The notes: generated by a model not told the origin, from the sequence alone. A stretch of DNA of 64,000 nucleotides from Candidatus Omnitrophota bacterium (GCA_030695925.1 JAUYOH010000139.1:15142-79141), one strand, 5' to 3'. Counted from the stretch's first letter, positions 12,391-62,083 are shown. Made by a program: numbers and translations.

Positions 12391-12431
12391 GGCGTTCAAA
12401 ACAAAGTTATGTTTTGAGCGCCTTTTATTTT
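12391..12431 (+). terminator. Rho-independent terminator after P-II
   Basis: 12-bp stem GGCGTTCAAAAC / GTTTTGAGCGCC (one G-U pair), 8-nt loop, then TTTTATTTT. Confidence 0.75.
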
Positions 12432-12481
12432 GCCGTTGAATGCTTAAAAGTTAAGCAACTCTTAATATCGCGGATAATATT

Positions 12482-41433: not shown

Positions 41434-41438
41434 GCAAG

Positions 41439-41780
41439 ATGCGAAACGGCGTATTTAAGTCTGTAACAATATCGGTCTTATTTATCGGCATGATTTACTT
41501 GGTAGGCTGCGCCGGCATCGAACCGCCTACGCCGAAGGAGATCTTAAGCCATCCTTTTGGGACATCGATGTTGCGAGTTGGCCTGACAAAAGATAGGATT
41601 CTGGCGCAATGGGGCGATCCGGATTTAAAGGAATATGACAACACGGGCAAATGGGACAACGCCAAGGAGAAATGGACTTATTACGCCAGATATGGGGAGG
41701 TCCCGGTAAACGCGGGATACCTTTCGAAGACGCAATATCTTTATTTTGACGGAAACTATTTAGTCAAATTTACCGAATAG
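41439..41780 (+). CDS. Small lipoprotein, BamE/SmpA-OmlA-like
   Basis: 113 aa with lipobox YLVGCAG. RVGLTKDRILAQWGDPD...KWTYY resembles the SmpA_OmlA fold signature. Confidence 0.45.
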   Translation: MRNGVFKSVTISVLFIGMIYLVGCAGIEPPTPKEILSHPFGTSMLRVGLTKDRILAQWGDPDLKEYDNTGKWDNAKEKWTYYARYGEVPVNAGYLSKTQYLYFDGNYLVKFTE

Positions 41781-41829
41781 TATGACTGAGATGTTTAATT
41801 GTTGTGTCCAAAAGATGACCCTCGAAGCC

Positions 41830-44615: not shown

Positions 44616-44655
44616 GGGTATCAGAGGTTAATTATACCATCTCGCCTTTAAAACA

Positions 44656-44664
44656 TGCTATAAT
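44656..44664 (+). promoter_or_regulatory. Extended -10 promoter (TGcTATAAT) predicting a near-leaderless mRNA
   Basis: TGCTATAAT at 44656-44664. The ATG of the 471-aa ORF lies 11 nt after the -10, and no SD lies between them. Confidence 0.4.
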
Positions 44665-44674
44665 CTTTTTCAAG

Positions 44675-46097: not shown

Positions 46098-46126
46098 TTG
46101 ACAGAGCCCTAAAGGTGAGGTATATT
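46098..46126 (+). promoter_or_regulatory. Sigma-70 promoter of the LacI-family regulator operon
   Basis: TTGACA (46098-46103), 17-nt spacer, TATATT (46121-46126). Confidence 0.55.
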
Positions 46127-46159
46127 TGAAGCACTTCAATTTTTATTGAAAGATTTCAA
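46126..46159. promoter_or_regulatory. Two LacI-type palindromic operators (O1 TTGAAGCACTTCAA, O2 TTGAAAGATTTCAA)
   Basis: O1 at 46126-46139 overlaps the -10; O2 is at 46146-46159. Centres are 20 bp apart. The motif recurs at 48425, 49116 and 49168. Confidence 0.6.
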
Positions 46160-46182: not shown

Positions 46183-47226
46183 ATGAAGATAACTCTCGAA
46201 CAAGTTGCCAAGAAATCAAATCTTTCCACCGGAACGGTCTCGATGGCCTTAAGGAACGATCCGCGGATCAAAGAATCGACCCGGAAATACGTCCTTGAGC
46301 TGGCTCAAAGATTAAATTATATTCCTTCCGCTTTAGGGAGGTCATTAGCTACTCAGAAGACCCAGATACTCGGGCTTACGATAACAGATATAACAAATCC
46401 CTTCTTTACAGAGGTCTTCAAGGGGGTCGAGGACATGGCCGTGAAGAATGGCTACAGCGTCATCCTCTCAAACACCGAATACGACCTTAAGCGCGAGACC
46501 GAGATTTTAAGGATATTTCTGGAAGGACGGGTTGACGGCCTGGTTATAGACCCGGTCGAAAACAACACTGATTTCGCGATGCTAAAGCAGCTCAAGAGGA
46601 TGGGCATACCATTTGTCTTATTAAGAAAGTTAAAGGGCCTGGAGAAAGAATATGACTATGTGATGGCCGATGATAAGAAAGGAGCCATTATTTTGACCCA
46701 GCATCTTATTAATATGGGCCATAGGCGCATAGGATATATAGGAAGCACGCAATGCGGAGTGACCGACCACGACAGGTTTTTGGGCTACAAACAGGCCCTC
46801 GCAAAAGCAGGCATAGAATTTGACGCGGGTTTAGTCACCAGCCATGATAGTTTTAGTTTATCCGAAGGCCTTAAGGTAGGCCGGGGACTGCTTCAGGCGA
46901 GAAAGGATATAGACGCTGTAGTCGCTTTCAATGACCTTTTGGCCTTAGGTGTTATGGAGGCGGCGTATTCTTTGGGCCTGCGCGTCCCGGAAGATTTAGC
47001 CGTGGGCGGGTTCGACGATATTTATATAAGCGGTTTAAGTCCGGTGTCATTAACTACCATCGCCTTGCCGAAATACGAATTGGGAAGCCGGGCAACCGAA
47101 CTGCTTATAGATAAGATAGAGGCGAAAAGGTCCAAGCGCCCCGCTAAGACAAACCAGATAGTATTGGAACCGAAACTGGTCATAAGAAGGTCGTGTGGGC
47201 ATAAAGAAAAGGAGGAGCAGCGATGA
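46183..47226 (+). CDS. LacI/GalR-family transcriptional regulator
   Basis: 347 aa. N-terminal HTH (ITLEQVAKKSNLSTGTVSMALRNDPRIKESTRKYVLELAQRLNYIPS). Periplasmic-binding-protein-like core (AVVAFNDLLALGVMEA, LAVGGFDD). Confidence 0.85.
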   Translation: MKITLEQVAKKSNLSTGTVSMALRNDPRIKESTRKYVLELAQRLNYIPSALGRSLATQKTQILGLTITDITNPFFTEVFKGVEDMAVKNGYSVILSNTEYDLKRETEILRIFLEGRVDGLVIDPVENNTDFAMLKQLKRMGIPFVLLRKLKGLEKEYDYVMADDKKGAIILTQHLINMGHRRIGYIGSTQCGVTDHDRFLGYKQALAKAGIEFDAGLVTSHDSFSLSEGLKVGRGLLQARKDIDAVVAFNDLLALGVMEAAYSLGLRVPEDLAVGGFDDIYISGLSPVSLTTIALPKYELGSRATELLIDKIEAKRSKRPAKTNQIVLEPKLVIRRSCGHKEKEEQR

Positions 47227-47792
47227 AAAAAGTCACAGTCTTGTTTTTGATTTGCCTTGCGTCTGTGGCGGGATTAGTCTCGTTCGCGACGGCGGCGATG
47301 ATGCCGGATTATATCTATCTATTTGATAAGAATAAGCCGGACCTGACCAATTGGAGGGATAAATTTGAAGATAACGCCTCCTCCAATGTCAAGATATTTT
47401 TGGAAGACTCTCCAGAAGGCAAAGTAGCGGTTATCGAGGGGCTTTCCGATAAGGAAAGTTTTGGCTGCGTCTATCAGGATGTTACCGTTGACGTAAATAA
47501 ATATCCTGTCCTGGAGATAGACGTCAATTCCGCTTCCAAGATGTGGTATATAATAATAGGTTGCGAAAACCTGAAAGACAAAGAGGTGGATTTTGACAAC
47601 AACAAGTTCGTAAGATTGCAATTTGATACCGACAGAGTCGGAAAGCATACTTATAATCTCAAGGCCTTGACCGGACTTTCCGGCGAACAGACCTTTCGCC
47701 TAAAAGTGGGCGTTGCCACGGGCGATGTCTATATTCCGGCGGTAGGGATAAAGATGGTATTCAGGAGCCTTAAGCTTGTCGGGACAAAATAG
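47223..47792 (+). CDS. Secreted protein of unknown function, paralogue family member 1
   Basis: 189 aa, ATGA overlap with the lacI-family gene. Signal peptide ...VSFATAA. Clearly homologous to residues ~30-175 of the 1578-aa protein (SFGCVYQDVTVDVNKYPVLEIDV vs SFGCIHKKLDVDFERYSYLEIEV; GKHTYNL vs GKFRYNL). Confidence 0.7.
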   Translation: MKKVTVLFLICLASVAGLVSFATAAMMPDYIYLFDKNKPDLTNWRDKFEDNASSNVKIFLEDSPEGKVAVIEGLSDKESFGCVYQDVTVDVNKYPVLEIDVNSASKMWYIIIGCENLKDKEVDFDNNKFVRLQFDTDRVGKHTYNLKALTGLSGEQTFRLKVGVATGDVYIPAVGIKMVFRSLKLVGTK

Positions 47793-47817
47793 AAACCAAG
47801 GAAAGGAAACGGGATAA

Positions 47818-48387
47818 ATGAAGATATCGATTGTAATCGCGATATCGCTTCTTCTGGTTGTCTTTGCGGTTGTCTCTTACGCCGATTCGATCGGATGGGG
47901 TTATGAGGATTGGGGGGCGGCTAATGCGGCACCCATAGGATGGGGCACATGGAATACAACTTTTGTCTCCAATGGGTTCGGACAAGACGGTCAAAGTACG
48001 GCTACCGTAACGGTAGGCAATATCAAGCCTTGGGGTAAGGTATTTTATTTTACGGGAGTTTCATCAAAAGCCATAGCCGGCGGCTTTAAATATCTCTATA
48101 TCAACACCTATGATATTAAGGGAGATATTCAGGTGGCTATTTCCGGCCCCAGCGATGCTGATTTTTATGATGTTACACCTCACTTGGTAAGCGGCAAGAC
48201 AGGTGATCCCCTTAAAAAGAGGGTATATTATCCCGGGCCTTATGTATTTGACTTGTCTGGTTGGAAGCCATTGCGTACCCACGCCAATGTATCGATTCAA
48301 CTGATCGGCGAGGGAGGGAAGGGAAAAAGCTTCACGATAAACCGTGTCTTCATCTCTGACTACAACCCTATGACTCAACCCAAATAA
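47818..48387 (+). CDS. Secreted protein of unknown function, paralogue family member 2
   Basis: 189 aa with signal peptide ...VVSYA. Weaker but co-linear similarity to member 1 (PWGKVFYFTGV...FKYLYINTYD...IQVAIS; SFTINRVFIS). Confidence 0.65.
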   Translation: MKISIVIAISLLLVVFAVVSYADSIGWGYEDWGAANAAPIGWGTWNTTFVSNGFGQDGQSTATVTVGNIKPWGKVFYFTGVSSKAIAGGFKYLYINTYDIKGDIQVAISGPSDADFYDVTPHLVSGKTGDPLKKRVYYPGPYVFDLSGWKPLRTHANVSIQLIGEGGKGKSFTINRVFISDYNPMTQPK

Positions 48388-48397
48388 TAAATTTCTA

Positions 48398-48438
48398 TTG
48401 ACAGAGAGATTTTTTGTAGTATAATTGAAGCGGTTCAA
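48398..48438 (+). promoter_or_regulatory. Sigma-70 promoter plus operator O3 (TTGAAGCGGTTCAA)
   Basis: TTGACA (48398-48403), 16-nt spacer, TATAAT (48420-48425). The operator at 48425-48438 overlaps the -10. Confidence 0.6.
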
Positions 48439-48462
48439 AAGTAAAAGGAGGTGGAACTGGCG

Positions 48463-49035
48463 ATGGGAAAGTTTTTATTGTTTTTAGCGGTAGTGGCCGG
48501 ACTTGTTTTATCGACTCAGATCGCCGGAGCGGAGACGATCTGGTCCGAGGATTTCTCGGATGTCAGCGATTGGGGCGTTGTTTTTGATCCGGGCGGCGGT
48601 TCAGTCATCAAGCGTTCTAATGGTCTGGATAGCATGCAGTCGGACAGCAATCCGGCCCATATGGCAGCGCTATATGTTGACAAAGAGCATGCCCAAGCTG
48701 CTTTTTCACCCAATCCGGTAGGTTCCAACTTTATTCCATTTGATCCGGCAAAGAAATCGGAATACACTCTAAAATGGAAAGTCGACAGACTTACAACGTC
48801 AGTCAGCTGGGATATCGCCATAGACGAATTTAACGCAAATAAAAAATATATAAACACTATTTGGAGCATATGTACCGCGAACAATGAGGCAGGAAAAGAA
48901 TTTTCAAAGAATTTGGGTAATAAGGGGTGGAGCGCAAGCACCAAATACGTAATACCAAAGATAAGTCTTCACAGCGGTGATGCCGCCCAGACAGCCTATC
49001 TATCTTATATGAGCCTAGAGAAGGCTTCAAAGTAA
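48463..49035 (+). CDS. Secreted protein of unknown function, paralogue family member 3
   Basis: ATG at 48463 (MGKFLLFLAVVAGLVLSTQIAGA). The track GTG at 48451 lies inside the AAGGAGG RBS. Mature N-terminus ETIWSEDFSDVSDWG parallels member 4 (ATVWTADFSNVTGWS). Confidence 0.65.
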   Translation: MGKFLLFLAVVAGLVLSTQIAGAETIWSEDFSDVSDWGVVFDPGGGSVIKRSNGLDSMQSDSNPAHMAALYVDKEHAQAAFSPNPVGSNFIPFDPAKKSEYTLKWKVDRLTTSVSWDIAIDEFNANKKYINTIWSICTANNEAGKEFSKNLGNKGWSASTKYVIPKISLHSGDAAQTAYLSYMSLEKASK

Positions 49036-49081
49036 CAAGCGGTATTGCAATAATATCCTCAATAAAAGCAAAAGATTACCA

Positions 49082-49181
49082 TTGACAAGTACCTAGGATA
49101 TGGTACAATCTAATATTGAAACGCTTCAAATAATAAAACAGCTTGCTTATTTTTTTGGCCTACCTAATTGAAGCGATTCAA
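49082..49181 (+). promoter_or_regulatory. Sigma-70 promoter plus operators O4 (TTGAAACGCTTCAA) and O5 (TTGAAGCGATTCAA)
   Basis: TTGACA (49082-49087), 16-nt spacer, TACAAT (49104-49109). O4 at 49116-49129, O5 at 49168-49181, both upstream of the PEP-CTERM gene. Confidence 0.6.
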
Positions 49182-49216
49182 AACCAATTAAACTAAATCA
49201 GAGAGGGGGTGAAACA

Positions 49217-49777
49217 ATGAAAAAATTACTTATACTCGCAGTGATAGCGCTTGGCATTCTAGTCGTAAATCCCTCTATGGCTTCAGCAACCGTTTGGACA
49301 GCGGATTTTAGCAACGTAACTGGTTGGTCACCTGCCGAAGGAGCGACTTTTACCAGCGATGGTTCAGCGGCTAAATTAGAGGATACTGCCGATGGTTCAG
49401 GTGTGGCAACTTGGGCTGGGACTCACGTTGATTATCAGGCCGGTGACCTTATCACTTTGGTCGTGTCCGGTGTTCATAATGCTCCTGTTAACGATACCTA
49501 TTGGAGGCTTAGCATCCATCAGTTTGACATCGCCAATGTGTATCTAGGTGAATTGGAATTGTTGCCTTACTCGCATTCTACAGGCACCTTTTCCAGTAGT
49601 TTTGCTGGTCTCAATGCCAGTACCGTTAAGTATGATCCGTCACTGAGAATTAGTACAATCAGTGGGACAGGCGATGCTACGTTTGACAACTTATCTGTTG
49701 TTCCGGAACCGGCAAGCCTGCTTCTTCTTGGAAGTGGTTTGTTAGGTCTAATTAGCGTTTCTCGCAAGAGAAAATAA
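49217..49777 (+). CDS. PEP-CTERM-anchored secreted protein, paralogue family member 4
   Basis: 186 aa with signal peptide ...PSMASA. C-terminal VPEP-ASLLLLGSGLLGLISV-SRKRK (nt 49700-49774) is a textbook PEP-CTERM sorting signal. Confidence 0.75.
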   Translation: MKKLLILAVIALGILVVNPSMASATVWTADFSNVTGWSPAEGATFTSDGSAAKLEDTADGSGVATWAGTHVDYQAGDLITLVVSGVHNAPVNDTYWRLSIHQFDIANVYLGELELLPYSHSTGTFSSSFAGLNASTVKYDPSLRISTISGTGDATFDNLSVVPEPASLLLLGSGLLGLISVSRKRK

Positions 49778-49792
49778 GCAGTTGTTTTAATG

Positions 49793-49844
49793 AGACAGGA
49801 GTTAGAAAAAGGATAAATCCCGATTTTGACTCCTGTCTTTTTTA
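49793..49844 (+). terminator. Rho-independent terminator after the PEP-CTERM gene
   Basis: AGACAGGAGT (49793-49802) pairs with ACTCCTGTCT (49829-49838). The loop is large (26 nt). Followed by TTTTTT. Confidence 0.55.
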
Positions 49845-49859
49845 ATCTGACATTTGCCC

Positions 49860-49888
49860 TTGACGAAAATCGAAATTCCTGATAAAGT
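49860..49888 (+). promoter_or_regulatory. Candidate sigma-70 promoter of the giant-protein operon
   Basis: TTGACG (49860-49865), 17-nt spacer, TAAAGT (49883-49888). No TTGAA-N4-TTCAA operator is seen here. Confidence 0.35.
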
Positions 49889-49924
49889 TAAGTTGTTTTT
49901 TCCGCCTCGATGAAGGAGGAGTAA

Positions 49925-52900
49925 TTGAGAATAAAGATCGTCCTTTTGGTATTAATAACGCTGAGTTTTTGCGGCATCAGCGGCATTGTTAATGCCGAAG
50001 ACAAAGAATCCTACCTCGATGTCTTTACCCCCGAAAAATCCGATCTGGGAACGTGGGCCTACGGCTGGGCGAACGAACCCGATGAAATCAATGCAGAGGT
50101 CGTCAACGGCGAGGCAGTCATTACCGGCGAGAGGCAAGACCAGAGTTTCGGTTGTATCCACAAGAAATTAGATGTCGATTTTGAGAGGTATTCTTATTTA
50201 GAGATCGAAGTGACGAGGGTCACTGACAGCTGGTATGTTATCTTCAGCAGCCCGGAATTCGAGAACGGGTTTGCGAGGATACAATCCGATACCAAAAAGA
50301 CCGGAAAATTCAGGTATAACCTGTGGGATTATCCGCAGCTTAAGGGGCAGGCGGAGTTTGATATCCAAATCGGAGTCAGTGCCCCGAATAAAAAGGGGCA
50401 AAAGGGCGCGCAAGTCGTCTTTAAGAACCTGCGTTTTATCGACGTCGGCGCAAAGAGGCCTCCGAGAGGCCCTAAGCTGGCCAAGCATGACCTGCCTTCG
50501 CCCATACCGCTAAGCAAGACCGAAAGGCCGCAGCCCGTAATCTCCAAGATCGCCCCTTTGCCATCGAAGGCTAAAGAGGCAGAACCCGTTGCGCCCGCCG
50601 TAAAAAAAAATATCTTTGAGGTCTTCGCAAGAGAAGAATCGCCTGTAAATCTAACATCTTCCGCGCCGGTTTTCGATGATACGGATAAAGACACAATAAC
50701 TATCGAGAACGATTGTTATAAGATAGTCTTTAGCAAGAAGAACGGCGCGTTAGTCGCAATAGAAGACAAGATAAATAGTGGAACGGTCTGCGCGGGTTCA
50801 GTCGGTGGGCAGTTATGGCGCCTTAATTTTTATAAAAGAAAGAGCATAACCAATAAAGATTTCAGCGCCGGTTCCCAAGAGAGGCCTTTTGAGTATAAAT
50901 GGCAGAAATCAAAAGGAGAGCTCTCGTTCTTATATCAGGACAAGACATCAGGTTTCCTGCTTAAGATAAAGGCACTCGCCTCAAAAAAAAACTATCTTGA
51001 CTTCCAGGTAGAGATAGAGAACGCCTACGAAGAACCCGCCATACTCCTTAACTTTCCCGAAGGCCTCAGCTTTAAACTCGAAAAATTAAGACAAGCCATC
51101 TTCCCTTTCAGGGGAGGCCTGGCCTTAAAGCCAGGTTTTTTTTTAGAGAGACGCTACATATCTGAATCCCAATATCTCTTTAGCGATTACTTTGCCGCAG
51201 AATTCGAGAAGAGTAATTTCTCTTTATATACCATCCAAAATCCGTCGCGCTGGACAGAAGCAACAATGTCGGTCGGTTATGATTCGTATCAGGGCGGTGT
51301 CGGATTCTATACCTACGCTCAGGCTACTTATATCCAGAAATCCAACAAGAAGACCGGTTCTTCAGGTTATTGGTCCAGCCCCGTCATAAGGATGCGTATC
51401 GCCGAGCCGGTTAAAGAGAGTATCCGGCATTATGCTCAAGATAACGGCTTCGACGAGATACCCGACCTTAATAAAAGGATCGACAAGGGCCTTTTTGATA
51501 AACTCTCCAAATCGGTCTTATTGAAATTCGACTTCAGCTGGATAGGCCAAAAATTCAGCGAGGTATCTGAATTCATCAAGACGCTTCCTTCGCCTACCCT
51601 TGTGCATATGGTTACTTTCTGGGAAAAAGGATTTGATAAGAACTATCCCGATTACCTGCCGCCCAATAAACAGTTCGGGACGCAGGAAGACCTAAAAAAT
51701 TTAGTCGCGGTGGCGCACGGCGAAGGACATCTGGTCATGCCCTACACTAACCCGACATGGTGGAACGAGAGCAAGACATTAGAGGCGCTTGGGGCAGAGA
51801 AGATCGCTGTAATAAAATTAGACGGGCACATCCATGATGAATACTATTGGGGGAAGAACTGGGGGGTAATCACAAGTCCGCATAATCCCGAAGTCATTAA
51901 AAGAACGCAACAGACCGTGCGGGAATTTAAGTATGACATACCCTGCGATATATTGTTTGAGGACCAGTTAGGAGCGAGGCCATGGCAATATGACCTGAAT
52001 CCGAAGGCAAGGGACCCGGTCCTTTACAAACAGGGGCTTATAGATTTCGCGAAGAGGGACTCAAAACAGATCCCTGTAATGTGCGAGGGCGGGTTTGACG
52101 GGCTTATGCCCTACGTTATCGCCTTCAGCGATATGGCGGTTAATAACTCGCTTCCGCCGGACAAGGTATTTAATAACTGGTACGGCGAGGGGAACTGGGA
52201 GACATTCCCTTACGCCTTATACGTAGCGCACGATAAGAACGGGTTTTATCAGCATAACCTCGCCCACGAAGTCTTTACGGACGCCAAGGACAAACTTATG
52301 TGGAATGTCGCATACGGGCATAATTTCACGCAGGGCTATTGGCCGAAGGAGTGGGAGAAGAGCCAGAAGAGATGGTTCTATATAGATGACGCTTTTCAGA
52401 AGAGCGTGGCTTCGCGGTATTTCGGCAAGAAATTGACGGATTTCCAAAGTCTTGACGGCAGAGTCACATTTAGCCGTTTCGAGGATATCGCCATAGTGGC
52501 GAATCATTCAAAGTCTAAGCCCTATCGTATAGAAAATTATATTATACCTCCGGAAGGGTTTCTCGCCGAGTCCGAGGGCGGCAATCTGGTCGCCGGAATG
52601 TTCAAGGTATTCAACGACGACCTATTGGCGGGCGAGCATTATATCATCGTAGAAAACCTGCCCAATAAAATAATAGTCAAGCAGCCGGATCCGAAGAGCA
52701 CTTTAATAAACGTTAAAAGGCCCGTTGATTGGAAAGAGGCCTCCGGGATAAAAATATCCTGCGCCGAAGGAGCCGTTCCCGCTGCTGTGACCGAAGACAA
52801 AATAACATTTCTTTATAACAGCCAAGAAATAGACAGCGAATATCTCATAGAATACGCCTCTCCGAAAGAAGACATAGAGTTAACTATATTGCCTGAGAAA

Positions 52901-54661
52901 AGATATGCCGGCTTAGGCGAGAACCTTAAGGTCAGTCTTGCCGCCAAGAACTTAAGCGGCGCATCGCTTAAAGAAGGAAAATTGGCTTTAAGCGTATGGC
53001 TTGTCCATGCCGCAGGGCCGGTTCCGGATATGTGGGCAGGTTATCTGGGGGATAGCGGGAACACCACCCAAATGAGCGAGATTTTTTATTCGCTTGACCC
53101 CGGCTCTCAGGTTGCCGCGGATTTCACTGTTCCGCTTCCGGAAAAGATAAAAGAGGGGGACGTGGTCTGGCTTAAGGGAGAGATAATCTACGGCCAGGAT
53201 TCCGCGAGAAAGATGAAGCAGATCCAGACGAAGGTCAATATAATACCAAAGGCGATAGAGATTCAGGTTGAGCCGATAGAGATCCTCATCTATCCCGATG
53301 TCAAGAGACAGATCGAGATCAGGATAAAGAATAACGAGGCCGGATCCCTTAAGGGAGAAATTAAGCTCGAGACCGATTTACCCAAAGGCGCGGCAGGCAA
53401 GGAGACTATACCCTTTTCACTTGAGCCGCTGGAAGAAAAGAGCATTTTTACGAACTTACTTGTCATGGCATCTGAAGCAGGCAAGGATTATAAGTTGACC
53501 GCTAAAATAAGATTGAATAATGTGGACTATTCTTCCGAAGCCTGCTCTATCAAAGCCAGAGAGGCGATACCCGAGATAGACTTGGGCCCGCAAAATGTCC
53601 TCGTCCTGGGCAAGAAACAGTCTTTATCTGTCGGTATAAAGGCTCACAAGGAAGTGCCGCTTAACGGCTGGTTGACTCTTAATATACCTCAGGGCTGGGA
53701 GATAACACCGCAGAAGCGGCTCTTGGAATTAGCTCCCGGCGAATATAAAAAGTTTGATTTTATCGTTACCCCTAATTCAAAAGGAGAGACTGATATAACC
53801 GCGGCCATAACCGTCTCAGGAGGAGCCGTTATCAAAGCGAAGGAACCGTTTAAGGTGATCGCCGGGAATAGAGAGGCGGCTTTGGTTGAATCAGACATCA
53901 ATGGGGACGGTTATATGGATATTGTGTTGGCGAACGCTTTAATAGAAGCCCAGGCGACAGAGGCAGTTGGCGGCAGGATCCTTTCTTTCTTTGTCAAGGA
54001 GACAGGTAACGATGAACTATACTCCGCGTATTCACAACTGCCGAAAGCAGGACAGCCGAAGGACTGGGTCGAATACGGGGGGATAAACGACTGGTTCCCT
54101 GAAGGATGGCCGGGTGAGGTCTGGGGAAATAAGTGGCAATATGAAGTAAGAGAAAGGGGACCCGAAGAGGTCTCGGTCAGAATGTGGACCGAGACGGAGA
54201 ATAAATTATATATCGAAAGGACTATGACATTACGGGCTGACTCCTCATCTTTAAAGTTAAGATACAAGATCAAGAACAACTCGGATAAAGAACAAGGGTT
54301 CATATGGGCGAACCATCCCGATCTGGCATGTGGCCCGTTCGACGCGACCGAGGAGAACCAAGCAGTGATTCCCGTCAAAGGCAAGGGCCTTGTAACACAG
54401 GATTACGGCAAGAGTATGAGCAAGACCGAGTATATACCGGACGGAGATCGGATCTTGGGATATGATAAGGCCAGCAACGAATATTTTATGCAGGAGTTTG
54501 ATAAGGATTTAATTGATAAAGTCGGCGTCTGGGAAGGCATCGGTTTTTATACTATGGAGTTGATATTTAAACCCCGGAAACTGAGGCCTCAGGAGGAATT
54601 TGACTTCGAAGTAAGATATAGCGCTGGGAAAGAAGACCCGCAAGATTTATTGAAAAGATGA
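49925..54661 (+). CDS. 1578-aa secreted multidomain protein (family module + glycoside-hydrolase-like core + beta-sandwich repeats + mutarotase-like C-terminus)
   Basis: TTG start 5 nt after AAGGAGG, with the signal peptide beginning at residue 1 (MRIKIVLLVLITLSFCGISGIVNA). Its N-module is homologous to the 47223 ORF and is followed by a Pro-rich linker. The central region is paralogous to the 62088 ORF. Downstream are NEW3/CARDB-like repeats (LNIPQGWEITP...LAPGE...FDFIVTP) and a DINGDGYMD motif. Confidence 0.8.
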   Translation: MRIKIVLLVLITLSFCGISGIVNAEDKESYLDVFTPEKSDLGTWAYGWANEPDEINAEVVNGEAVITGERQDQSFGCIHKKLDVDFERYSYLEIEVTRVTDSWYVIFSSPEFENGFARIQSDTKKTGKFRYNLWDYPQLKGQAEFDIQIGVSAPNKKGQKGAQVVFKNLRFIDVGAKRPPRGPKLAKHDLPSPIPLSKTERPQPVISKIAPLPSKAKEAEPVAPAVKKNIFEVFAREESPVNLTSSAPVFDDTDKDTITIENDCYKIVFSKKNGALVAIEDKINSGTVCAGSVGGQLWRLNFYKRKSITNKDFSAGSQERPFEYKWQKSKGELSFLYQDKTSGFLLKIKALASKKNYLDFQVEIENAYEEPAILLNFPEGLSFKLEKLRQAIFPFRGGLALKPGFFLERRYISESQYLFSDYFAAEFEKSNFSLYTIQNPSRWTEATMSVGYDSYQGGVGFYTYAQATYIQKSNKKTGSSGYWSSPVIRMRIAEPVKESIRHYAQDNGFDEIPDLNKRIDKGLFDKLSKSVLLKFDFSWIGQKFSEVSEFIKTLPSPTLVHMVTFWEKGFDKNYPDYLPPNKQFGTQEDLKNLVAVAHGEGHLVMPYTNPTWWNESKTLEALGAEKIAVIKLDGHIHDEYYWGKNWGVITSPHNPEVIKRTQQTVREFKYDIPCDILFEDQLGARPWQYDLNPKARDPVLYKQGLIDFAKRDSKQIPVMCEGGFDGLMPYVIAFSDMAVNNSLPPDKVFNNWYGEGNWETFPYALYVAHDKNGFYQHNLAHEVFTDAKDKLMWNVAYGHNFTQGYWPKEWEKSQKRWFYIDDAFQKSVASRYFGKKLTDFQSLDGRVTFSRFEDIAIVANHSKSKPYRIENYIIPPEGFLAESEGGNLVAGMFKVFNDDLLAGEHYIIVENLPNKIIVKQPDPKSTLINVKRPVDWKEASGIKISCAEGAVPAAVTEDKITFLYNSQEIDSEYLIEYASPKEDIELTILPEKRYAGLGENLKVSLAAKNLSGASLKEGKLALSVWLVHAAGPVPDMWAGYLGDSGNTTQMSEIFYSLDPGSQVAADFTVPLPEKIKEGDVVWLKGEIIYGQDSARKMKQIQTKVNIIPKAIEIQVEPIEILIYPDVKRQIEIRIKNNEAGSLKGEIKLETDLPKGAAGKETIPFSLEPLEEKSIFTNLLVMASEAGKDYKLTAKIRLNNVDYSSEACSIKAREAIPEIDLGPQNVLVLGKKQSLSVGIKAHKEVPLNGWLTLNIPQGWEITPQKRLLELAPGEYKKFDFIVTPNSKGETDITAAITVSGGAVIKAKEPFKVIAGNREAALVESDINGDGYMDIVLANALIEAQATEAVGGRILSFFVKETGNDELYSAYSQLPKAGQPKDWVEYGGINDWFPEGWPGEVWGNKWQYEVRERGPEEVSVRMWTETENKLYIERTMTLRADSSSLKLRYKIKNNSDKEQGFIWANHPDLACGPFDATEENQAVIPVKGKGLVTQDYGKSMSKTEYIPDGDRILGYDKASNEYFMQEFDKDLIDKVGVWEGIGFYTMELIFKPRKLRPQEEFDFEVRYSAGKEDPQDLLKR

Positions 54662-55674
54662 AGCTAAAAAAATACGCTGACAACCCCATCCTGAAACCTG
54701 CGAAGGAAGGAAACTGGGAGAGGCATGCCGTATGTAATCCCGGGGCCTATTACGACAAGGGCAAGGTCTACATGCTCTACAGGGCTTCGGCTGAGACGGA
54801 CATATACCGCATCTATATGGGCCTCGCCATAAGCGAGGACGGTCTTCATTTCAAGAGAGCGTCTAACAAGCCCATCTATACTCCGACATATCTGTTTGAA
54901 GCCGGGGGCGTTGAGGACCCCCGTATCGTAAAATTCGGCGGCTACTATTATATTACATACGCCTGCAGGGCCGTTCCCTATACGATGTTTGTCATGGGCA
55001 AAGGGCCTGAGTATTCCGAGAACGCGCCAAAGAGCCTGAAGGAGAACCTGACCCGCACAGGCCTTTTGCGCACAAAGGATTTCAGGAATTTCGAATGTTT
55101 GGGCGCCATCTCCCGGGATGACGTAGATGACCGCGATGTAGTGATATTTCCGGAAAAAATTAAGGGCAAATATGTAATGCTCCACAGGCCCGCAGAATGG
55201 ATTGGGCCGAAATATGGTTGCGCAAAACCAAGCATATGGATGACTTTTTCCAACTCGTTGACCAGATGGGGAGAAAAGAGCCTGATCTTGGCTCAGCCTG
55301 ACCCCGAAATCCCCTGGCAGGAGAAGAAGATCGGTGCAAGCACTCCTCCTATCAAGACAAAGTACGGATGGCTGCTTATGTATCACGGCGTTGAGGGTGA
55401 CAAACCCGGACGGTATTACCGGCAAGGAGTTATGATGCTGGACCTCAAAGACCCGCGCAAGATCGTCTCCCGGCCGAGGGATTTCATACTGGAACCAACC
55501 GAGCCCTTCGAGAAAGAGGGAGTGGAAGAGAACGTGGTCTTTGCCGTAGGTAACGTCGTCATCGGCAAAGAGTATTTTTGCTATTACGGCGGCGCGGACA
55601 AAGTCATATGCGCGGCCACGGCGAAACTGCAAGACCTCGTGGATTTCGCGATGTCAGCCCCGGTTAAGAGATGA
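54658..55674 (+). CDS. GH130-family glycoside phosphorylase (beta-mannoside phosphorylase-like)
   Basis: 338 aa, ATGA overlap with the giant ORF. NPGAYYDKGKVYMLYRA, GVEDPRIVKFGGYYYITY and DRDVVIFPEKIKGKYVMLHRP match GH130/DUF377 signatures. Confidence 0.8.
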   Translation: MKLKKYADNPILKPAKEGNWERHAVCNPGAYYDKGKVYMLYRASAETDIYRIYMGLAISEDGLHFKRASNKPIYTPTYLFEAGGVEDPRIVKFGGYYYITYACRAVPYTMFVMGKGPEYSENAPKSLKENLTRTGLLRTKDFRNFECLGAISRDDVDDRDVVIFPEKIKGKYVMLHRPAEWIGPKYGCAKPSIWMTFSNSLTRWGEKSLILAQPDPEIPWQEKKIGASTPPIKTKYGWLLMYHGVEGDKPGRYYRQGVMMLDLKDPRKIVSRPRDFILEPTEPFEKEGVEENVVFAVGNVVIGKEYFCYYGGADKVICAATAKLQDLVDFAMSAPVKR

Positions 55675-56333
55675 GCGTTAAAGGTGCTATCTTTGATTTA
55701 GACGGTGTCGTCGTCAATACCGCGAAGTTCCATTATATGGGATGGAAGAAACTGGCCGATGAGATCGGTGCCCCTTTTGATGAAGTAAAGAACGAGAAAT
55801 TAAAGGGGCTAAGCCGGAGAGATTCCCTCTTGGCCCTTCTCGGTTACACGCCGGATGAAAAGAAAATCGACGAATTATGTGAACAGAAAAATAAGTATTA
55901 TCTGGAATTCGTCAGTCGCATAGACCGCAGCCAGATACTTCCCGGTGCTTTAGAGTTGATCGAAGAGATACATAAGGCAAAAGATTGGAAACAAGCCCTT
56001 GCTTCTTCAAGTAAAAACGCGAGGACCGTTCTTAAAAAACTGGATATCGAAAAGTACTTCGATGCGGCTGTGGATGGGACGGAGACGAAGAAGACTAAAC
56101 CTGATCCCGAACTGTTCCTGAAAGCGGCATCACGGCTAGGGTTGACCTCTGATAATGTCGTTGTCTTTGAGGACGCCGAATCCGGCGTACGGGCAGCTAA
56201 GAGCGGCGGGATGCTGGTAGTCGGAGTCGGAGACAGAAAGATATTACACGAAGCCGACCTCGTCATAAAAGACCTCTCGGAGATCGATATCGCCGGAATC
56301 GAGAAATTGTTCAGAGAAAAAGGAAAAGCATAG
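55671..56333 (+). CDS. pgmB: Beta-phosphoglucomutase (HAD superfamily)
   Basis: 220 aa. DLDGVV nucleophile motif, KGLSRRDSL, KTKPDPELFL and EDAESGVRAAKSGGM. Immediately upstream of the GH65 gene. Confidence 0.85.
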   Translation: MSVKGAIFDLDGVVVNTAKFHYMGWKKLADEIGAPFDEVKNEKLKGLSRRDSLLALLGYTPDEKKIDELCEQKNKYYLEFVSRIDRSQILPGALELIEEIHKAKDWKQALASSSKNARTVLKKLDIEKYFDAAVDGTETKKTKPDPELFLKAASRLGLTSDNVVVFEDAESGVRAAKSGGMLVVGVGDRKILHEADLVIKDLSEIDIAGIEKLFREKGKA

Positions 56334-58619
56334 ATGTCTCGACAGGATTGGCTCATCGAGGAGAAGAAGTATTCGTCAAAGAAGGAGTTATACTGGGAGA
56401 CCATATTCGCCCTCTCCAACGGCTATATGGCATCCAGAGGGGTCCTTGAAGAAAACCATTTTTGCCCGCAAGTAAAGTCATGTTTCGGCACTTATGTCGC
56501 TGGTATTTTTGATAAATATAGCGGGAACTATCAAGCCATCGTCAACCAGCCGGATTTTTTTAACACCGGAGTCTATGTCAACGGTGAATTGATGAATATG
56601 AACGAGGGCAAGTTCGAGAATTATACGCGGTATCTGGATATGTATGACGGCGTTCTTGTCCGTAAATTCATATGGACTAGCCCAAGGAAAAAGAAGACCG
56701 AGTTTGAGATCACTCGCTTCATCAGCAAGGCCGACGAACATCTCGCTGTTTTGCATTATAAGATAAGGCCTCTGAACTATAACGGAGAAATCAGGATTAA
56801 TAATGTTCTCGACGGGAATGTCACGAATATTGATTTCCATATCAGCGGTTATCAGCTCAGGGACGAAAAATACTATTTTATAGATGACAAGTATGAAGCC
56901 GGCGGCCTGCCCGACGGGGGATATCTGACCGTAAATACGAAGATGACACAGATGTCGGTCTGCGAGGCGTTCAGATGCGAGGTCCGCGAGAACGAAGAAA
57001 AGATTTCAGCAAAAATAAATAGCAAAACCCGTAAGCTTCTTCTGGATAACGATGTCCGGTTTAGGGCCAGTAAAGGGACATCCTATTCATTCCTGAAATT
57101 GATCGCCGTTTATTCTTCCAAGGACGGCGTCTCCGATTTAAGGCGTTCCTGCGCCAATAAATTGAAAGAAGCCTCATCAAAAGGATACGACCGGCTTTTG
57201 GCGGAACACGCCGGAAAATGGAACAAGATCTGGGATGTCAGCGACGTCAGGATCGAGGGCGATAAGAGAGACCAGAGAAACGTCAGGTTCAACATCTATC
57301 ACCTCATCCAGATGGGTAACAAGAAGAATCCCCGCGTTAATATCGGTTCCCGCGGCCTGACCAGCGAGATGCATTACGGTAATTGTTTTTGGGATACCGA
57401 ACTTTTCATAATGCCTTTCTTTATCTTTACCGACCCTGATACGGCCAAGGCATTGGTCAAATACCGTTACCTGACCCTGCCCGCGGCAAGAGAGAAAGCC
57501 AAGAGATTATTGTTTAAAGGCGCGATGTATCAATGGATGAGTTCATATCCCGGACACGAACAAGCCGATTATTGGGAATACGCCAATATCGCGGTCCATA
57601 TCGTCTCCGACGTCACCTTCGGCCTGATGAATTATTATTACGCGACCAACGATACGCGGCTTATGCTCGATTGCGGCCTGGAGATGCTTATCGAGACCGC
57701 GCGTTTTTGGGTAAGCCGTGTCGATTATAGCCCGATAAGGAAACGCTATGTCATGAATCTGGTGAAGGGGCCTAACGAATACGGGATCGTCAATAACAAC
57801 ACCTATACCAACTGGAACGCGCGCTGGAACCTCATTCAGGCCACGAAGATGGTTGAATGGGCAAGGAAGAACCATCCCGATAAGCTTAAGAAAGTCTCAC
57901 GAAAGATCAAGTTCGGCCTCAAAGAGACAAGGGACTGGACGAAGATCATCGATAATATATACATAAATTACGATAAGAAAAGAGACTTGTATATCGAGGA
58001 TGACCAGTTCCTTGAGAAGAGGCCGGTAGATATAAGGAAGATGAAACCGGGAAAAATCATAACTACGGAATTAGGTTACTCGTGGGACACTTTCCTCAGG
58101 CTTAAAATCGTCAAACAGGCCGATGTCTTGCTTCTGATGTATCTGCACAGGGAGAACTTCACGAGGAAACAGCTCTTGAACGCGTGGAAGTTTTATGAGC
58201 CGATGACTCTTCACGATTCTTCCTTGAGCTATAATACACATTCGATCATAGCCAACGAACTTGGAGACAAGAAAAAGAGTGACCTTTATTTCCAGCAGAC
58301 AGCGCGATTGGATTTGGAAGACGTGATGGCAAACACGTTCTTAGGCATACATTCCGCCAGCGCCGGAGGGACATGGCAGTGTGTGGTTCGTGGCTTTTGC
58401 GGGATGAGAATGGATATGGAGCATAACAGGATCGAATTTAACCCGAACCTGCCGGACCGATGGAAGAGAGTTAATTTTAAGATCGTTTATAAGGGCAATC
58501 TGTTCGCGGTCAGCGTTGAAGGGAAGAAGGTGCGGATAACGCATGAGAAGGCATATGAAAGTTCTTCTTCTGTCCGGGTCGAAGGTAATAAAATCATTGA
58601 CGGAAACCCAAGTTCTTGA
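56334..58619 (+). CDS. GH65-family disaccharide phosphorylase (maltose/kojibiose/trehalose/nigerose phosphorylase-like)
   Basis: 761 aa. WLIEEKKYSSKKELYWETIFALSNGYMASRG, FWDTELFIMPFF and KQADVLLLMYL match GH65 signatures. Confidence 0.85.
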   Translation: MSRQDWLIEEKKYSSKKELYWETIFALSNGYMASRGVLEENHFCPQVKSCFGTYVAGIFDKYSGNYQAIVNQPDFFNTGVYVNGELMNMNEGKFENYTRYLDMYDGVLVRKFIWTSPRKKKTEFEITRFISKADEHLAVLHYKIRPLNYNGEIRINNVLDGNVTNIDFHISGYQLRDEKYYFIDDKYEAGGLPDGGYLTVNTKMTQMSVCEAFRCEVRENEEKISAKINSKTRKLLLDNDVRFRASKGTSYSFLKLIAVYSSKDGVSDLRRSCANKLKEASSKGYDRLLAEHAGKWNKIWDVSDVRIEGDKRDQRNVRFNIYHLIQMGNKKNPRVNIGSRGLTSEMHYGNCFWDTELFIMPFFIFTDPDTAKALVKYRYLTLPAAREKAKRLLFKGAMYQWMSSYPGHEQADYWEYANIAVHIVSDVTFGLMNYYYATNDTRLMLDCGLEMLIETARFWVSRVDYSPIRKRYVMNLVKGPNEYGIVNNNTYTNWNARWNLIQATKMVEWARKNHPDKLKKVSRKIKFGLKETRDWTKIIDNIYINYDKKRDLYIEDDQFLEKRPVDIRKMKPGKIITTELGYSWDTFLRLKIVKQADVLLLMYLHRENFTRKQLLNAWKFYEPMTLHDSSLSYNTHSIIANELGDKKKSDLYFQQTARLDLEDVMANTFLGIHSASAGGTWQCVVRGFCGMRMDMEHNRIEFNPNLPDRWKRVNFKIVYKGNLFAVSVEGKKVRITHEKAYESSSSVRVEGNKIIDGNPSS

Positions 58620-58631
58620 TAAAGTTAAATT

Positions 58632-60044
58632 ATGAAAGTTAAATTAGAGACGAAAGCAATTGTTTTAGCGGCTCTCGCCGTTTTTGCCTGTAATTTTTTG
58701 GGTTGCGCCGGCAGCGGCGCCCACACCGATACCGTCAAAATAACCTACTGGGAGAAATGGACCGGTTTTGAAGGCGACGCCATGCAGGCCGTCGTTGACC
58801 TGTTTAATTCCAGAAAGATAAAGAATAAGGAGGGTAAGGTCATTCAGGTCGAGATGATAACGACGAGCCAGCTTGACAGGCGCCTCCTGACCGCGGCCGC
58901 CGGCGGAAATCCTCCCGACGTAGCGGGAGTCTGGACATGGCTCGTCACCGTTTACGCGGAAAAAGGGGCAATTCTTCCCATTGATGATTATTTGAAAGAG
59001 GCGGGCATAACCGAGGAACGCTACGTGCCTGTTTTCTGGGAGATATGCAAGTATAAGGATAAGATGTGGGGGTTGCCTTCGACTCCGGCCTCAGTGGCGC
59101 TTCATTGGAATAAACGCCTTTTCAGGGAAGCCGGCCTTGACCCGAACGCTCCGCCGAAGACGATACAGGAATTGGATGAGATGGCGGAAAAATTGACCCT
59201 GATACAATTGCCTAATCAGGAAAAGCCGGTATCTTTTTATGAATTAAAGACGAGGAAGAACCACGAGGAATTGCTTGCCGCGGGCAAGATCATTCAGATG
59301 GGATTCCTGCCTTCTGAACCGGGATGGTGGCCATGGTTTTGGGGTTATTGGTTCGGCGGCAGGCTATGGGATGAGAAAGACACCATAACGACCGACGATC
59401 CCGGGAACATCGAAGCCTATAATTGGGTAAGTTCTTATTCCTTAAAATACGGCGTTGATAATGTAAATAAATTTTCAAGCAGTTTCGGCGTCTTCGCCTC
59501 GCCTCAGAACGCTTTCCTTTCATCGAAAATCGCCATGGTAGTGCAGGGCGTTTGGATGTATAATTTTATAGACAAATACGCCACCGGGATGGATTGGGCA
59601 GCGGCGCCTTTCCCTTCTGATGAGGGCAGATTAAAAGATGTCTCCTATGTCGAGGCGGATATCCTGATCATTCCCAAGGGCGCCAAGCATCCGGATGAGG
59701 CATTCAAGTTTATAAGTTTCGTGAATACGCAGGAAGCCATGGAACTCTTATGCGAAGGCCAGAGAAAATTTACGCCGCTTAAAGAGGTGAGCGAAGGCTT
59801 TTACGCCAGAAGTAAAAATCCCTATATACGCATGTTCAGGAAACTGGCCGAAAGCCCCAACGGCTTCATCACGCCGAAGATAATAATCTGGCAGGAATAT
59901 CAGAGAGAGATAGGTTTCGCAACCGATATGATACGCAACCTCAAGGCAACGCCTAAAGCCGCTTTAACGCAAGCCCGGAAAATTATGCAGATAAGGTTAG
60001 GCAGGGAACTTGAGATATCAAAGAGAGCCGAGAAGGAGAAATGA
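58632..60044 (+). CDS. ABC transporter sugar-binding lipoprotein
   Basis: 470 aa with lipobox NFLGCAG. Family-1 SBP-like sequence (ITYWEKWTGFEGDAMQAVVDLFN). Confidence 0.8.
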   Translation: MKVKLETKAIVLAALAVFACNFLGCAGSGAHTDTVKITYWEKWTGFEGDAMQAVVDLFNSRKIKNKEGKVIQVEMITTSQLDRRLLTAAAGGNPPDVAGVWTWLVTVYAEKGAILPIDDYLKEAGITEERYVPVFWEICKYKDKMWGLPSTPASVALHWNKRLFREAGLDPNAPPKTIQELDEMAEKLTLIQLPNQEKPVSFYELKTRKNHEELLAAGKIIQMGFLPSEPGWWPWFWGYWFGGRLWDEKDTITTDDPGNIEAYNWVSSYSLKYGVDNVNKFSSSFGVFASPQNAFLSSKIAMVVQGVWMYNFIDKYATGMDWAAAPFPSDEGRLKDVSYVEADILIIPKGAKHPDEAFKFISFVNTQEAMELLCEGQRKFTPLKEVSEGFYARSKNPYIRMFRKLAESPNGFITPKIIIWQEYQREIGFATDMIRNLKATPKAALTQARKIMQIRLGRELEISKRAEKEK

Positions 60045-60925
60045 CTAGAGGGGAAAGAAATAATTTAGTAAAAGGCCTTTTATTCACCTCGCCGTGGCTT
60101 ATAGGATTCTCCATCTTTGTGATATATCCCGTTATAGCCTCCCTGTATTATAGTTTTTGTCATTATTCCGTCCTGCAGCCGGCGCGTTTCATAGGGCTTC
60201 TCAATTATAAAGACCTGTTTACTGACCCGATCTTCTGGAAAGCCCTGTGGAATACCTTCTATTTCGCTATTTTCACCATACCCTTAGGGTTCGTGATGTC
60301 ATTGGGCCTTGCGATGCTGCTGAATACGAAAGTAAAGGGAATGGCGTTTTACAGGCTGATATTCTTTATACCGTCTTTGGTCCCGATGGTGGCAGGCTCG
60401 ATGCTGTGGATGTGGATCTTTAACGGAGAATACGGGCTCCTTAATAACTTTCTTATGAAACTTGGGCTCGCGAATCCTCCTAATTGGCTGATGGATGTCA
60501 AGTTTGCCAAAAACGCGATTGTGATCATGAGCCTGTGGGGACTGGGGCAGACGATCGTAATATATCTTGCGGGGCTGCAGGATGTGCCGGTAAGCCAGCT
60601 TGAAGCCGCCGAACTTGACGGGGCGAACTGGTTTGATAAGCTGATCCACGTTACCATACCAATGATCTCGCCGGTGATCTATTTTAATGTCGTCATTGGT
60701 ATCATAGGCAGCTTTCAGGTCTTCGGTCAGGCGTATATAATGACCGGCGGCGGGCCGCAGCGTTCGACCACATTTTATGCCCTCTATCTTTATCAGACGG
60801 CCTTTGAGGATTTCCGCATGGGGTATGCGAGCGCTATGGCGTGGATATTATTTATCATAATCCTGATCCTGACCATATGGGTCAGTAAGATCTCCAAAAA
60901 GAAGGTTTATTATCACGGAGGCTAA
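60041..60925 (+). CDS. ABC sugar transporter permease (MalF/UgpA-like)
   Basis: 294 aa with 6 TM segments. EAA loop LEAAELDGANWFDKLIHVTIPMISP. Confidence 0.85.
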   Translation: MTRGERNNLVKGLLFTSPWLIGFSIFVIYPVIASLYYSFCHYSVLQPARFIGLLNYKDLFTDPIFWKALWNTFYFAIFTIPLGFVMSLGLAMLLNTKVKGMAFYRLIFFIPSLVPMVAGSMLWMWIFNGEYGLLNNFLMKLGLANPPNWLMDVKFAKNAIVIMSLWGLGQTIVIYLAGLQDVPVSQLEAAELDGANWFDKLIHVTIPMISPVIYFNVVIGIIGSFQVFGQAYIMTGGGPQRSTTFYALYLYQTAFEDFRMGYASAMAWILFIIILILTIWVSKISKKKVYYHGG

Positions 60926-60931
60926 GTTCTT

Positions 60932-62083
60932 ATGCCGCAGAGTAGAACTACAAGATTATTAATACACTTGGCGCTTATCGCCTGTTCGATAGTTTTTGTC
61001 ATACCGTTTGCTTGGGTCATGGCCACATCCTTAAAGCCGGTCGAGCAGACGATGACCGTTCCGCCTACATGGATACCGAAGACCTACTACGTTAAATTTA
61101 AGGGAAAACAGGTCGAGGTAAAAAAAGGCATCACGACACAGGAACCCGGCTTTATAGCGGTCGTGACAGAAGGACCCAAAAAGGGAGAGCGCCTTTTCGT
61201 GCCTAAATCCCAGTTCAGGGAAGGCAAAGCTTTGCTGCAGGTGCAGGTCGCCGACAGGATATTTGAGGATTATTATCTCATCAACATAGAAAAAGAAGTA
61301 GGAACCGGATGGGTACAGGTGGTCGAAAAGACCTCCGGGCAATACGCCAAGACAGGGCCCTACTGGACGTTTGTCCCGCCGCAGGAGGTCACGGAAAGAG
61401 TGAAGTTCTGGTGGGATAATTATGCGGCGGTGTTCAGGAAGATCCCTTTCTTTAATTATACCAAAAATACTTTAATAGTATGTATCCTCGGGTCTTTGGG
61501 CGTAACTCTTTCGAGCGCCCTCGTTGCCTACGGATTCGCGAGGATACGCTGGCCGGGAAGGGACTTTATATTTATGCTAACACTTTCGTCCATGATGATT
61601 CCTTTCGCGGTCACCATGGTGCCTCTTTACGGCGTATTTAAGGCCTTCGGCTGGATAGGGACGCTAAAGCCTCTTTGGATGCCGGCTCTCTTCGGAGGCG
61701 CCTTTGACATATTTCTGCTGAAGCAATTTTTTATGACAATTCCCAAGGATTTGACCGACGCCGCCAGAGTCGACGGATGCAGCGAACTCGGCATATTCTT
61801 CAGGATAATGCTTCCTCTGTCAAAGCCCGCGCTTACGGTCGTCGCGCTTTTTCATTTTATGTATTCGTGGAACGATTTTATGGGACCGTTAATCTTCCTG
61901 ACGAACAAGGATACTTATACCCTGTCGTTAGGCCTGCAGGTCTTTCAGAGCCAGCAGGGCGGTACGGAATGGCACCTCCTGATGGCCGCTTCCGCGATGG
62001 TAATCCTGCCTATCTTAATCATGTTCTTCTTTGCCCAGAAGACCTTCATACAGGGTGTAGCCCTCACAGGACTAAAGGAATAA
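60932..62083 (+). CDS. ABC sugar transporter permease (MalG/UgpE-like) with a large periplasmic insertion
   Basis: 383 aa. EAA loop LTDAARVDGCSELGIFFRIMLPLSKP. Roughly 130 extra residues lie between TM1 and TM2. Confidence 0.85.
   Translation: MPQSRTTRLLIHLALIACSIVFVIPFAWVMATSLKPVEQTMTVPPTWIPKTYYVKFKGKQVEVKKGITTQEPGFIAVVTEGPKKGERLFVPKSQFREGKALLQVQVADRIFEDYYLINIEKEVGTGWVQVVEKTSGQYAKTGPYWTFVPPQEVTERVKFWWDNYAAVFRKIPFFNYTKNTLIVCILGSLGVTLSSALVAYGFARIRWPGRDFIFMLTLSSMMIPFAVTMVPLYGVFKAFGWIGTLKPLWMPALFGGAFDIFLLKQFFMTIPKDLTDAARVDGCSELGIFFRIMLPLSKPALTVVALFHFMYSWNDFMGPLIFLTNKDTYTLSLGLQVFQSQQGGTEWHLLMAASAMVILPILIMFFFAQKTFIQGVALTGLKE

Follow-up and report, generated by a model that had tools for sequence, protein, structure and literature searches.

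The described systems closest to the locus considered here are the type-B beta-jelly-roll carbohydrate-binding modules (CBMs) of families CBM16, CBM22, CBM4, CBM61 and CBM11, together with the sugar-binding domain of Fbs1, all of them domains of ~150 residues with an all-beta jelly-roll fold. Such CBMs are placed at the N-terminus of large extracellular enzymes, next to a Pro-rich linker, and occur in tandem arrays. The stretch of DNA analysed in our study, 64,000 nucleotides of a Candidatus Omnitrophota bacterium (GCA_030695925.1, JAUYOH010000139.1:15142-79141; hereafter the window, with positions counted from its first letter), encodes five exported modules of like size: the bodies of four small proteins, M1 to M4, and the N-terminal segment of a giant protein, BIG. 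The fold is shared by the confident model of M3, and the placement by the modules that are fused to giant proteins. On the other hand, these modules have no detectable sequence relation to any Pfam model or PDB chain, their structural similarity to the CBMs is limited to template-modelling (TM) scores of ~0.5, and many members are free-standing or PEP-CTERM anchored instead of being appended to an enzyme.

According to general knowledge, the SusE/SusF-type proteins of Bacteroidota are likewise small, non-catalytic exported proteins with CBM-like beta-sandwich domains, coded in a sugar-regulated locus near an outward-facing enzyme and a transporter. They differ from the modules in phylum, in anchoring (a lipoprotein anchor, as opposed to a PEP-CTERM signal or no anchor here) and in the accompanying transporter (SusC/D, as opposed to an ATP-binding cassette (ABC) importer here); moreover, the regulator of our locus is of LacI type, and the two groups have no sequence relation. 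Similarity to PEP-CTERM/exosortase proteins (PF07589, TIGR02595) lies in the PEP motif, hydrophobic helix and basic tail in which M4 and most of its family end. However, the N-terminal module of M4 matches no named PEP-CTERM family over its body, and M1, M2 and M3 lack the signal.

In regard to the giant protein, the nearest relatives are DUF6259, DUF5696 and the glycoside hydrolase (GH) family GH129 of alpha-N-acetylgalactosaminidases. BIG passes the DUF6259 (PF19773) threshold with 40.0 bits (cut-off 28.7, residues 545-642), and the profile of its core matches GH129 NagBb (5wzn) with E 0.0065 in a segment carrying the motif G[FY]D..PDYLP. These likenesses are partial, as the DUF6259 match spans ~100 of ~750 conserved core residues and the GH129 match 46 residues. 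The profile hints that the core may be a TIM-barrel glycosidase distantly like GH129. A literature search on DUF6259 and DUF5696 found nothing relevant.

Relatedness of the five modules

As judged from sequence profiles, the five segments are one superfamily composed of three families: A (M1 and the N-terminus of BIG), B (M3 and M4) and C (M2 alone). In our opinion, it is likely that the modules have a common ancestor and the same fold. The families were resolved with the help of syntenic loci from other metagenome-assembled genomes (MAGs; L-numbered loci below). Within family A, direct BLAST aligns M1 to residues 4-172 of BIG with 28.6% identity over 185 aa (E 2.4e-23), in agreement with the initial annotation, which had aligned M1 to approximately residues 30-175 of the giant protein. 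Within family B, the mature N-terminus that had been pointed out before is common to M3 (ETIWSEDFSDVSDW) and M4 (ATVWTADFSNVTGW). Their direct BLAST match (E 4.6e-6) is confined to the signal peptide and this motif, while the PEP-CTERM protein of a syntenic locus, L002_g4, bridges the two over their full length, with 31% identity to M3 (E 6e-24) and 33% to M4 (E 4e-10).

None of the remaining pairs of the five segments was significant in direct pairwise BLAST. Profile comparisons, in which signal peptides and PEP-CTERM tails were trimmed beforehand, gave no convincing link between families as long as the profiles were shallow (11-46 sequences, P 0.03 to 0.5). The link emerged only after family A was enriched to a profile of 137 domains, drawn from a search of 1.84 billion proteins. 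The enriched profile aligned co-linearly with B over 129 columns (hhalign probability 93%, E 3e-7) and with C over 103 columns (hhalign probability 38%, P 3e-4), and neither of these scores was ever attained by reversed alignments or by 200 column or block shuffles. Furthermore, an A profile built without window sequences was used in a blind scan of all 339 six-frame open reading frames (ORFs) of the window. It detected M1 (E 1e-50), the N-terminus of BIG (E 6e-50), M4 over nearly the full length of the profile (E 5e-6, profile positions 9-148) and M2 (E 0.0047), followed by the next best ORF at E 0.11. M3 joins via the B profile, which finds M3 at E 1e-58 and M4 at E 1e-31. The weaker co-linear pattern that the initial annotation had perceived in M2-M4 lacks significance in direct pairwise BLAST but gains it at the profile level, moderately so for M2. 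At the level of sequence, the links of M1 to the BIG N-terminus and of M3 to M4 can be regarded as firmly based and the A-B link as strong, while M2 is moderately linked and is the least secure member.

The N-terminal module (residues 40-175) of a 2164-aa protein, P0172, starts with the family-B motif EDFTDVSDW and continues with a family-A core (GYGSV...YPTLTVDV...KTGKQTYNLKALTGWSGKKTF). By these motifs, it is a natural intermediate between families A and B. Its equal length had suggested that P0172 is the same as L003_g5, which would have made it a direct match between A and B; this was rejected, as the sequences differ.

The earlier proposal that the copies diversified by tandem duplication does not hold if understood as a recent expansion, because identity among paralogues is below 30%, each has its own orthologues, 50-90% identical, in other MAGs, and the gene order varies even among close relatives. 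The order M1-M2-M3-M4 of the window is replaced in L002 (10001-12687) by M1, an M3-type gene, an M2-type gene and a PEP-CTERM family-B gene, the last being nearer to M3 than to M4, and L004 has neither the M2 type nor a PEP-CTERM member. Ratios of dN/dS between the module genes and their orthologues in L009 and L002 are 0.10-0.43; therefore, these are real genes under purifying selection.

Word-indexed searches yielded 9 clusters for A, 45 for B and 10 for C. An exhaustive profile search extended family A to at least 152 representative clusters (50% identity) at E <= 1e-3, in which each protein has one to five copies of the module and the longest reaches 4789 aa. For family C, a scan of species-representative genomes found nothing, and a metagenome scan added two loci only.

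Fold, export, partners and regulation

In accordance with the initial annotation, which could not name a family for the module, none of the three families has a match in Pfam-A, NCBIfam or the PDB chain sequences, including individual scans of 35 family-A and 45 family-B members at E <= 1. A PDB sequence search by profile returned nothing for A and matches at chance level for B. Membership in an established CBM family was thus not found in these databases, and profile and structure searches (Pfam, NCBIfam and PDB for all, a fold search for M3) did not place the members in unrelated known families, an outcome that had been named as a possible refutation.

The CBM-like beta-sandwich suspected previously is borne out by the structural model of M3, which is all-beta, has 12 strands arranged in a beta-jelly-roll and was predicted with a local confidence (pLDDT) of 93 and a predicted TM score (pTM) of 0.87. 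Its best PDB matches are CBM16, CBM22, CBM61, CBM4-2, CBM11, the sugar-binding domain of Fbs1 and glycan-binding domains of phage tailspikes (E ~1e-5, TM 0.45-0.56). The model has the beta-sandwich/jelly-roll of ~120-200 residues by which the fold of CAZy-type CBMs is recognised, and its likeness to them, as modelled, is one of fold class, not of family membership. For M2, no such fold was obtained, as discussed below. The invariant columns of families A and B hold Trp, Phe, Tyr, Gly, Ile and similar residues, and no acidic or nucleophilic residue is invariant in either alignment. Such lack of a conserved catalytic-type residue fits a non-catalytic module.

The initial annotation described four consecutive ORFs of nearly equal size with signal peptides, and M1 to M4 (189, 189, 190 and 186 aa) fully agree with that description. 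A basic n-region, a hydrophobic core and an AXA-type cleavage site can be read from the sequences of all five proteins; the sites are ATA/A, SYA/D, AGA/E, ASA/T and VNA/E for M1, M2, M3, M4 and BIG, in that order. Three results go beyond the initial annotation: the PEP-CTERM anchor of M4, the LacI operators, and the recurrent fusion with or adjacency to DUF6259 enzymes. The anchor of M4 (VPEPASLLLLGSGLLGLISVSRKRK), consisting of a PEP motif, a hydrophobic span and a basic tail, exceeds the curated cut-offs of both PF07589 (28.8 bits, cut-off 20.7) and TIGR02595 (24.9 bits, cut-off 16). PEP-CTERM matches at E <= 1 were found in 34 of the 45 family-B members, while in family C a similar tail is visible by eye in the longer members (5 of 11), with a Pfam PEP-CTERM annotation on P0063 only. 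Searches of the literature on Omnitrophota with PEP-CTERM, and on PEP-CTERM with CBM, found nothing relevant.

Module types alternate between free genes and parts of giant proteins. Four of the five window copies are free-standing. Family A is fused to DUF6259 proteins, in BIG as well as elsewhere: each of the six large proteins closest in family A has DUF6259 together with one to three A modules at its N-terminus. Proteins of this architecture are also present in Elusimicrobiota and a Spirochaetes MAG, and a second Omnitrophota example is the true BIG orthologue, which lies elsewhere in the L003 genome. A free two-module family-A protein was found directly 5' of a 1723-aa DUF6259 gene. Likewise, the type of module found at the N-terminus of BIG is a free gene in L003 and L004 (36-39% identity), and the N-terminus of a paralogous giant protein in L003 shares 50% identity with M4 over 164 aa. 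More distant family-A modules co-occur with SLH, F5/8 type C, PA14, rhamnosidase, GxGYxYP and type IX secretion system (T9SS) tail domains. Members of B and C in Kiritimatiellia and in unassigned metagenome contigs adjoin LacI, GH99/71-like, GH130, GH31, GH2 and CBM9 genes.

L003 (4419-6512) and L018 (5893-12435) belong to a single contig, DAOVKU010000002.1, of an Omnitrophota MAG with three DUF6259-type proteins: a 697-aa form, the BIG orthologue with a family-A module (71% identical core), and a paralogue of 2164 aa that combines an M4-type module with purple-acid-phosphatase-N/fn3-like repeats. In L003, the position of M4 is occupied by a 190-aa PEP-CTERM protein (11887-12459) outside families A, B and C and without a Pfam match, with a LacI-type palindrome just 5' of its gene (11822-11835). 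Further small unannotated ORFs (165-300 aa) surround the family-B/C members of L007 (1034-5828) and L016 (5617-7950), in clusters that also contain prepilin-type (N_methyl/SBP_bac_10) proteins and GH99/71-like, GH130, GH31 and GH2 genes.

The palindrome TTGAARCNNTTCAA has 10 strand-matches at five sites in the 64 kb, compared with 0.76 expected, and all five sites are located at or just downstream of the lacI, M3 and M4 promoters. Palindromes of ~14 bp at promoters, adjoining a LacI-family gene, are the arrangement of a LacI regulon. In L002, palindromes occupy the corresponding positions, in front of the genes for LacI, the M3-type protein and the PEP-CTERM protein; in L003 and L004 they precede the gene for LacI, for the PEP-CTERM protein or for the giant protein. 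Four transcription units are predicted, namely lacI-M1-M2, M3, M4, and BIG together with the catabolic genes. Judging from these sites, the neighbouring LacI-family repressor appears to control the first three through the 14-bp palindromes.

Layout and surroundings of the locus

Coordinates of the features are collected in Table 1. Translation of the GH130 gene is coupled to that of BIG through an overlap of 4 bases, and upstream of lacI lie a GH94 gene and a second sugar-binding protein. The ATG is the preferred start of M3, since gene callers picked it and the alternative GTG at 48451 overlaps with the ribosome-binding site (AGGAGG).

Table 1. Positions of the module genes, their control elements and the adjoining genes in the window.
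Feature	Position	Strand	Remarks
lacI-M1-M2 promoter-like site	46098-46126	+	TTGACA-17-TATATT (sequence motif); whole element 46098..46159
Two LacI-type palindromes after the lacI promoter-like site	46126-46139; 46146-46159	+	first site TTGAAGCACTTCAA
LacI-family repressor gene	46183..47226	+	stop overlaps M1 start codon by 4 bases (ATGA)
M1 (189 aa)	47223..47792	+	signal peptide ~47223-47300, then family-A module
M2 (189 aa)	47818..48387	+	signal peptide 47818-47883, then family-C module
M3 promoter	48398-48425	+	perfect sigma-70 consensus, TTGACA-16-TATAAT; whole element 48398..48438
LacI-type palindrome at M3 promoter	48425-48438	+	first base is last base of promoter
M3 (190 aa from ATG)	48463..49035	+	signal peptide 48463-48531, then family-B module
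M4 promoter-like site	49082-49109	+	11/12 matches, extended TG; whole element 49082..49181
Two LacI-type palindromes upstream of M4	49116-49129; 49168-49181	+	
M4 (186 aa)	49217..49777	+	signal peptide, family-B module, PEP-CTERM (residues 162-186, 49700-49774)
Putative intrinsic terminator 3' of M4	49790..49852	+	strong hairpin, then U-run; dG -32 kcal/mol, z -7.0
Giant exported protein BIG (1578 aa)	49925..54661	+	TTG start
BIG, family-A module	50003-50449		residues 27-175
BIG, Pro/Lys-rich linker	~50450-50680		
BIG, DUF6259-type core	~50642-52924		
BIG, NPCBM_assoc domain			residues 1246-1296
BIG, C-terminal region			weak FG-GAP- and mutarotase-like hints
Downstream catabolic genes	54658..62083	+	GH130, beta-phosphoglucomutase, GH65, ABC sugar-binding protein, two permeases

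Between GH94 and lacI (39677-46090) lies a conserved block with synteny kept across MAGs (also L001, L002 and L004). It contains a D-Ala-D-Ala-ligase-like ATP-grasp protein, a methyltransferase, a 113-aa exported protein, a divergent TldD/PmbA protease pair and a 471-aa protein with faint circularly-permuted ATP-grasp matches only, and resembles a peptide-modification cassette. Farther upstream, a nitrogen-assimilation block (10487-32325) holds an ammonium transporter, the large and small glutamate synthase subunits, carbamoyl-phosphate synthase, CTP synthase, two glutamine synthetases, NAD synthase and a GAF-ANTAR regulator. A 536-aa ORF (18758-20368) has a partial Glu_synthase match only, and a 259-aa ORF (9692-10471), directly 5' of the ammonium transporter, is without a Pfam match. 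Nearly all window genes are on the + strand, and the cumulative GC skew climbs steadily. An Rfam scan of the whole window gave no family at gathering score.

Proposed role of the modules and rival explanations

On balance, and with moderate confidence, we favour the explanation that the modules are non-catalytic, CBM-like glycan-binding accessory proteins of a sugar-regulated polysaccharide-utilisation locus around the DUF6259 giant enzyme. According to this proposal, all five proteins would be exported through their Sec signal peptides, and M4 would be further processed or anchored via its PEP-CTERM signal. The modules could then bind the polysaccharide that the giant enzyme presumably attacks: one module, fused to the enzyme, as a targeting module, another sorted by its PEP-CTERM signal and three free, so that some of the small proteins might bind glycans in free form or attached to the cell. 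Oligosaccharides released in this way would be taken up by the neighbouring ABC transporter, and the GH130, GH65 (with beta-phosphoglucomutase) and GH94 phosphorylases would cleave them in the cytoplasm, while the LacI repressor would switch the module units at their promoters.

Several points weigh against this proposal. M3 is the sole well-modelled member, its likeness to known CBMs stays at the level of fold (TM ~0.5), and no ligand-contacting residues could be mapped. For M2, the model is poor (pLDDT 53, from 11 sequences), the fold search returned nothing below E 0.02, and the scores that tie it to the other families are moderate. In regard to the enzyme, the GH129 match of BIG is short, we know of no demonstrated activity for DUF6259, and the window has no operator-like site 5' of the BIG gene. 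Furthermore, the host is diderm, as BamA and LpxA/C/D/I genes are present in the window; therefore, Sec export alone brings M1-M3 and BIG to the periplasm only, and the window ORFs scanned included neither an exosortase nor a secretion-system gene. Finally, jelly-rolls also mediate protein-protein contacts.

This last point leads to an alternative in which the modules do not bind glycans but are protein-protein assembly units that keep the giant enzyme, or one another, attached to the cell envelope, with the PEP-CTERM end of M4 as the anchor and free and fused modules pairing like cohesin-type jelly-rolls. The alternation of the same module types between free genes and giant-protein fusions is what would be expected of interacting partners, and there is usually one PEP-CTERM-anchored member per locus. 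However, the matches of the M3 model are mostly glycan-binding modules, with no cohesin among the 50 matches listed, and distant A modules in up to five tandem copies within multidomain extracellular enzymes are typical of CBMs. The idea that the PEP-CTERM protein L003_g4 is a cohesin was dropped, as it has no Pfam match. Overall, we consider such assembly units unlikely, and it is still less likely that the modules are surface or matrix proteins of the PEP-CTERM/exosortase kind (floc- or extracellular-polymer-associated) without any part in polysaccharide breakdown. The frequency of PEP-CTERM signals in family B, and their presence in some family-C members, would agree with a matrix role, as would the large beta-helix proteins that P0039 adjoins, rather than clear glycosidases, and the weak matches of the M4 C-terminal region to named PEP-CTERM families. 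These NCBIfam matches, though, cover only the C-terminal part of M4 (from approximately residue 111-160 to the end) and are far below cut-offs; M1, M2 and M3 lack an anchor, fusions of family A with DUF6259 enzymes occur in several phyla, and the LacI-type operators point to sugar-responsive control.

It could also be argued that A, B and C are unrelated small beta-rich exported proteins whose resemblance stems from composition and secondary-structure periodicity, since BLAST between families is not significant, shallow profiles give weak P values, the A-C hhalign probability is low and the structure of M2 could not be modelled. We regard this as improbable, as the enriched A profile reaches B over most of the module, the shuffled and reversed controls stay below the observed A-B and A-C scores, the blind scan picks out exactly the module genes, and P0172 joins a B-type motif to an A-type core. 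Least likely of all is the view that the modules are small jelly-roll enzymes, for instance GH11/GH12/GH16-like hydrolases or lyases. GH12 and NopAA xyloglucanase domains do occur low in the M3 fold-search list, yet with root-mean-square deviations of 8-13 A and TM 0.38-0.50; with ~150 residues the modules are below the size of such catalytic domains, and the A and B alignments lack an invariant acidic pair or catalytic-type residue.

The fold class of the modules is known, while the literature and databases searched contain no description of the sequence superfamily, of its organisation in free and anchored forms or of its coupling to DUF6259. Going one step beyond the glycan-binding proposal, we tentatively suggest, as a possibility less probable than that proposal itself, that Omnitrophota, Elusimicrobiota, Spirochaetes-like bacteria and Kiritimatiellia share an undescribed polysaccharide-capture system, in which free, PEP-CTERM-anchored or enzyme-fused CBM-like units, switched on by a LacI repressor, feed a new family of giant glycosidases (DUF6259). 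If true, such a system would correspond in function to the surface glycan-binding proteins of Bacteroidota, but with other components and with exosortase sorting. The locus is compact, as it combines its five modules with a single enzyme, a single transporter, three phosphorylases and a repressor whose operators are clear, and it may yield new glycan-binding reagents and a new glycosidase family. The modules would define a domain superfamily that is missing from Pfam, NCBIfam and PDB, and would provide a first functional handle on DUF6259 giant proteins. In a wider sense, they would tie PEP-CTERM/exosortase sorting to the foraging of polysaccharides in phyla that are little known and mostly uncultured.

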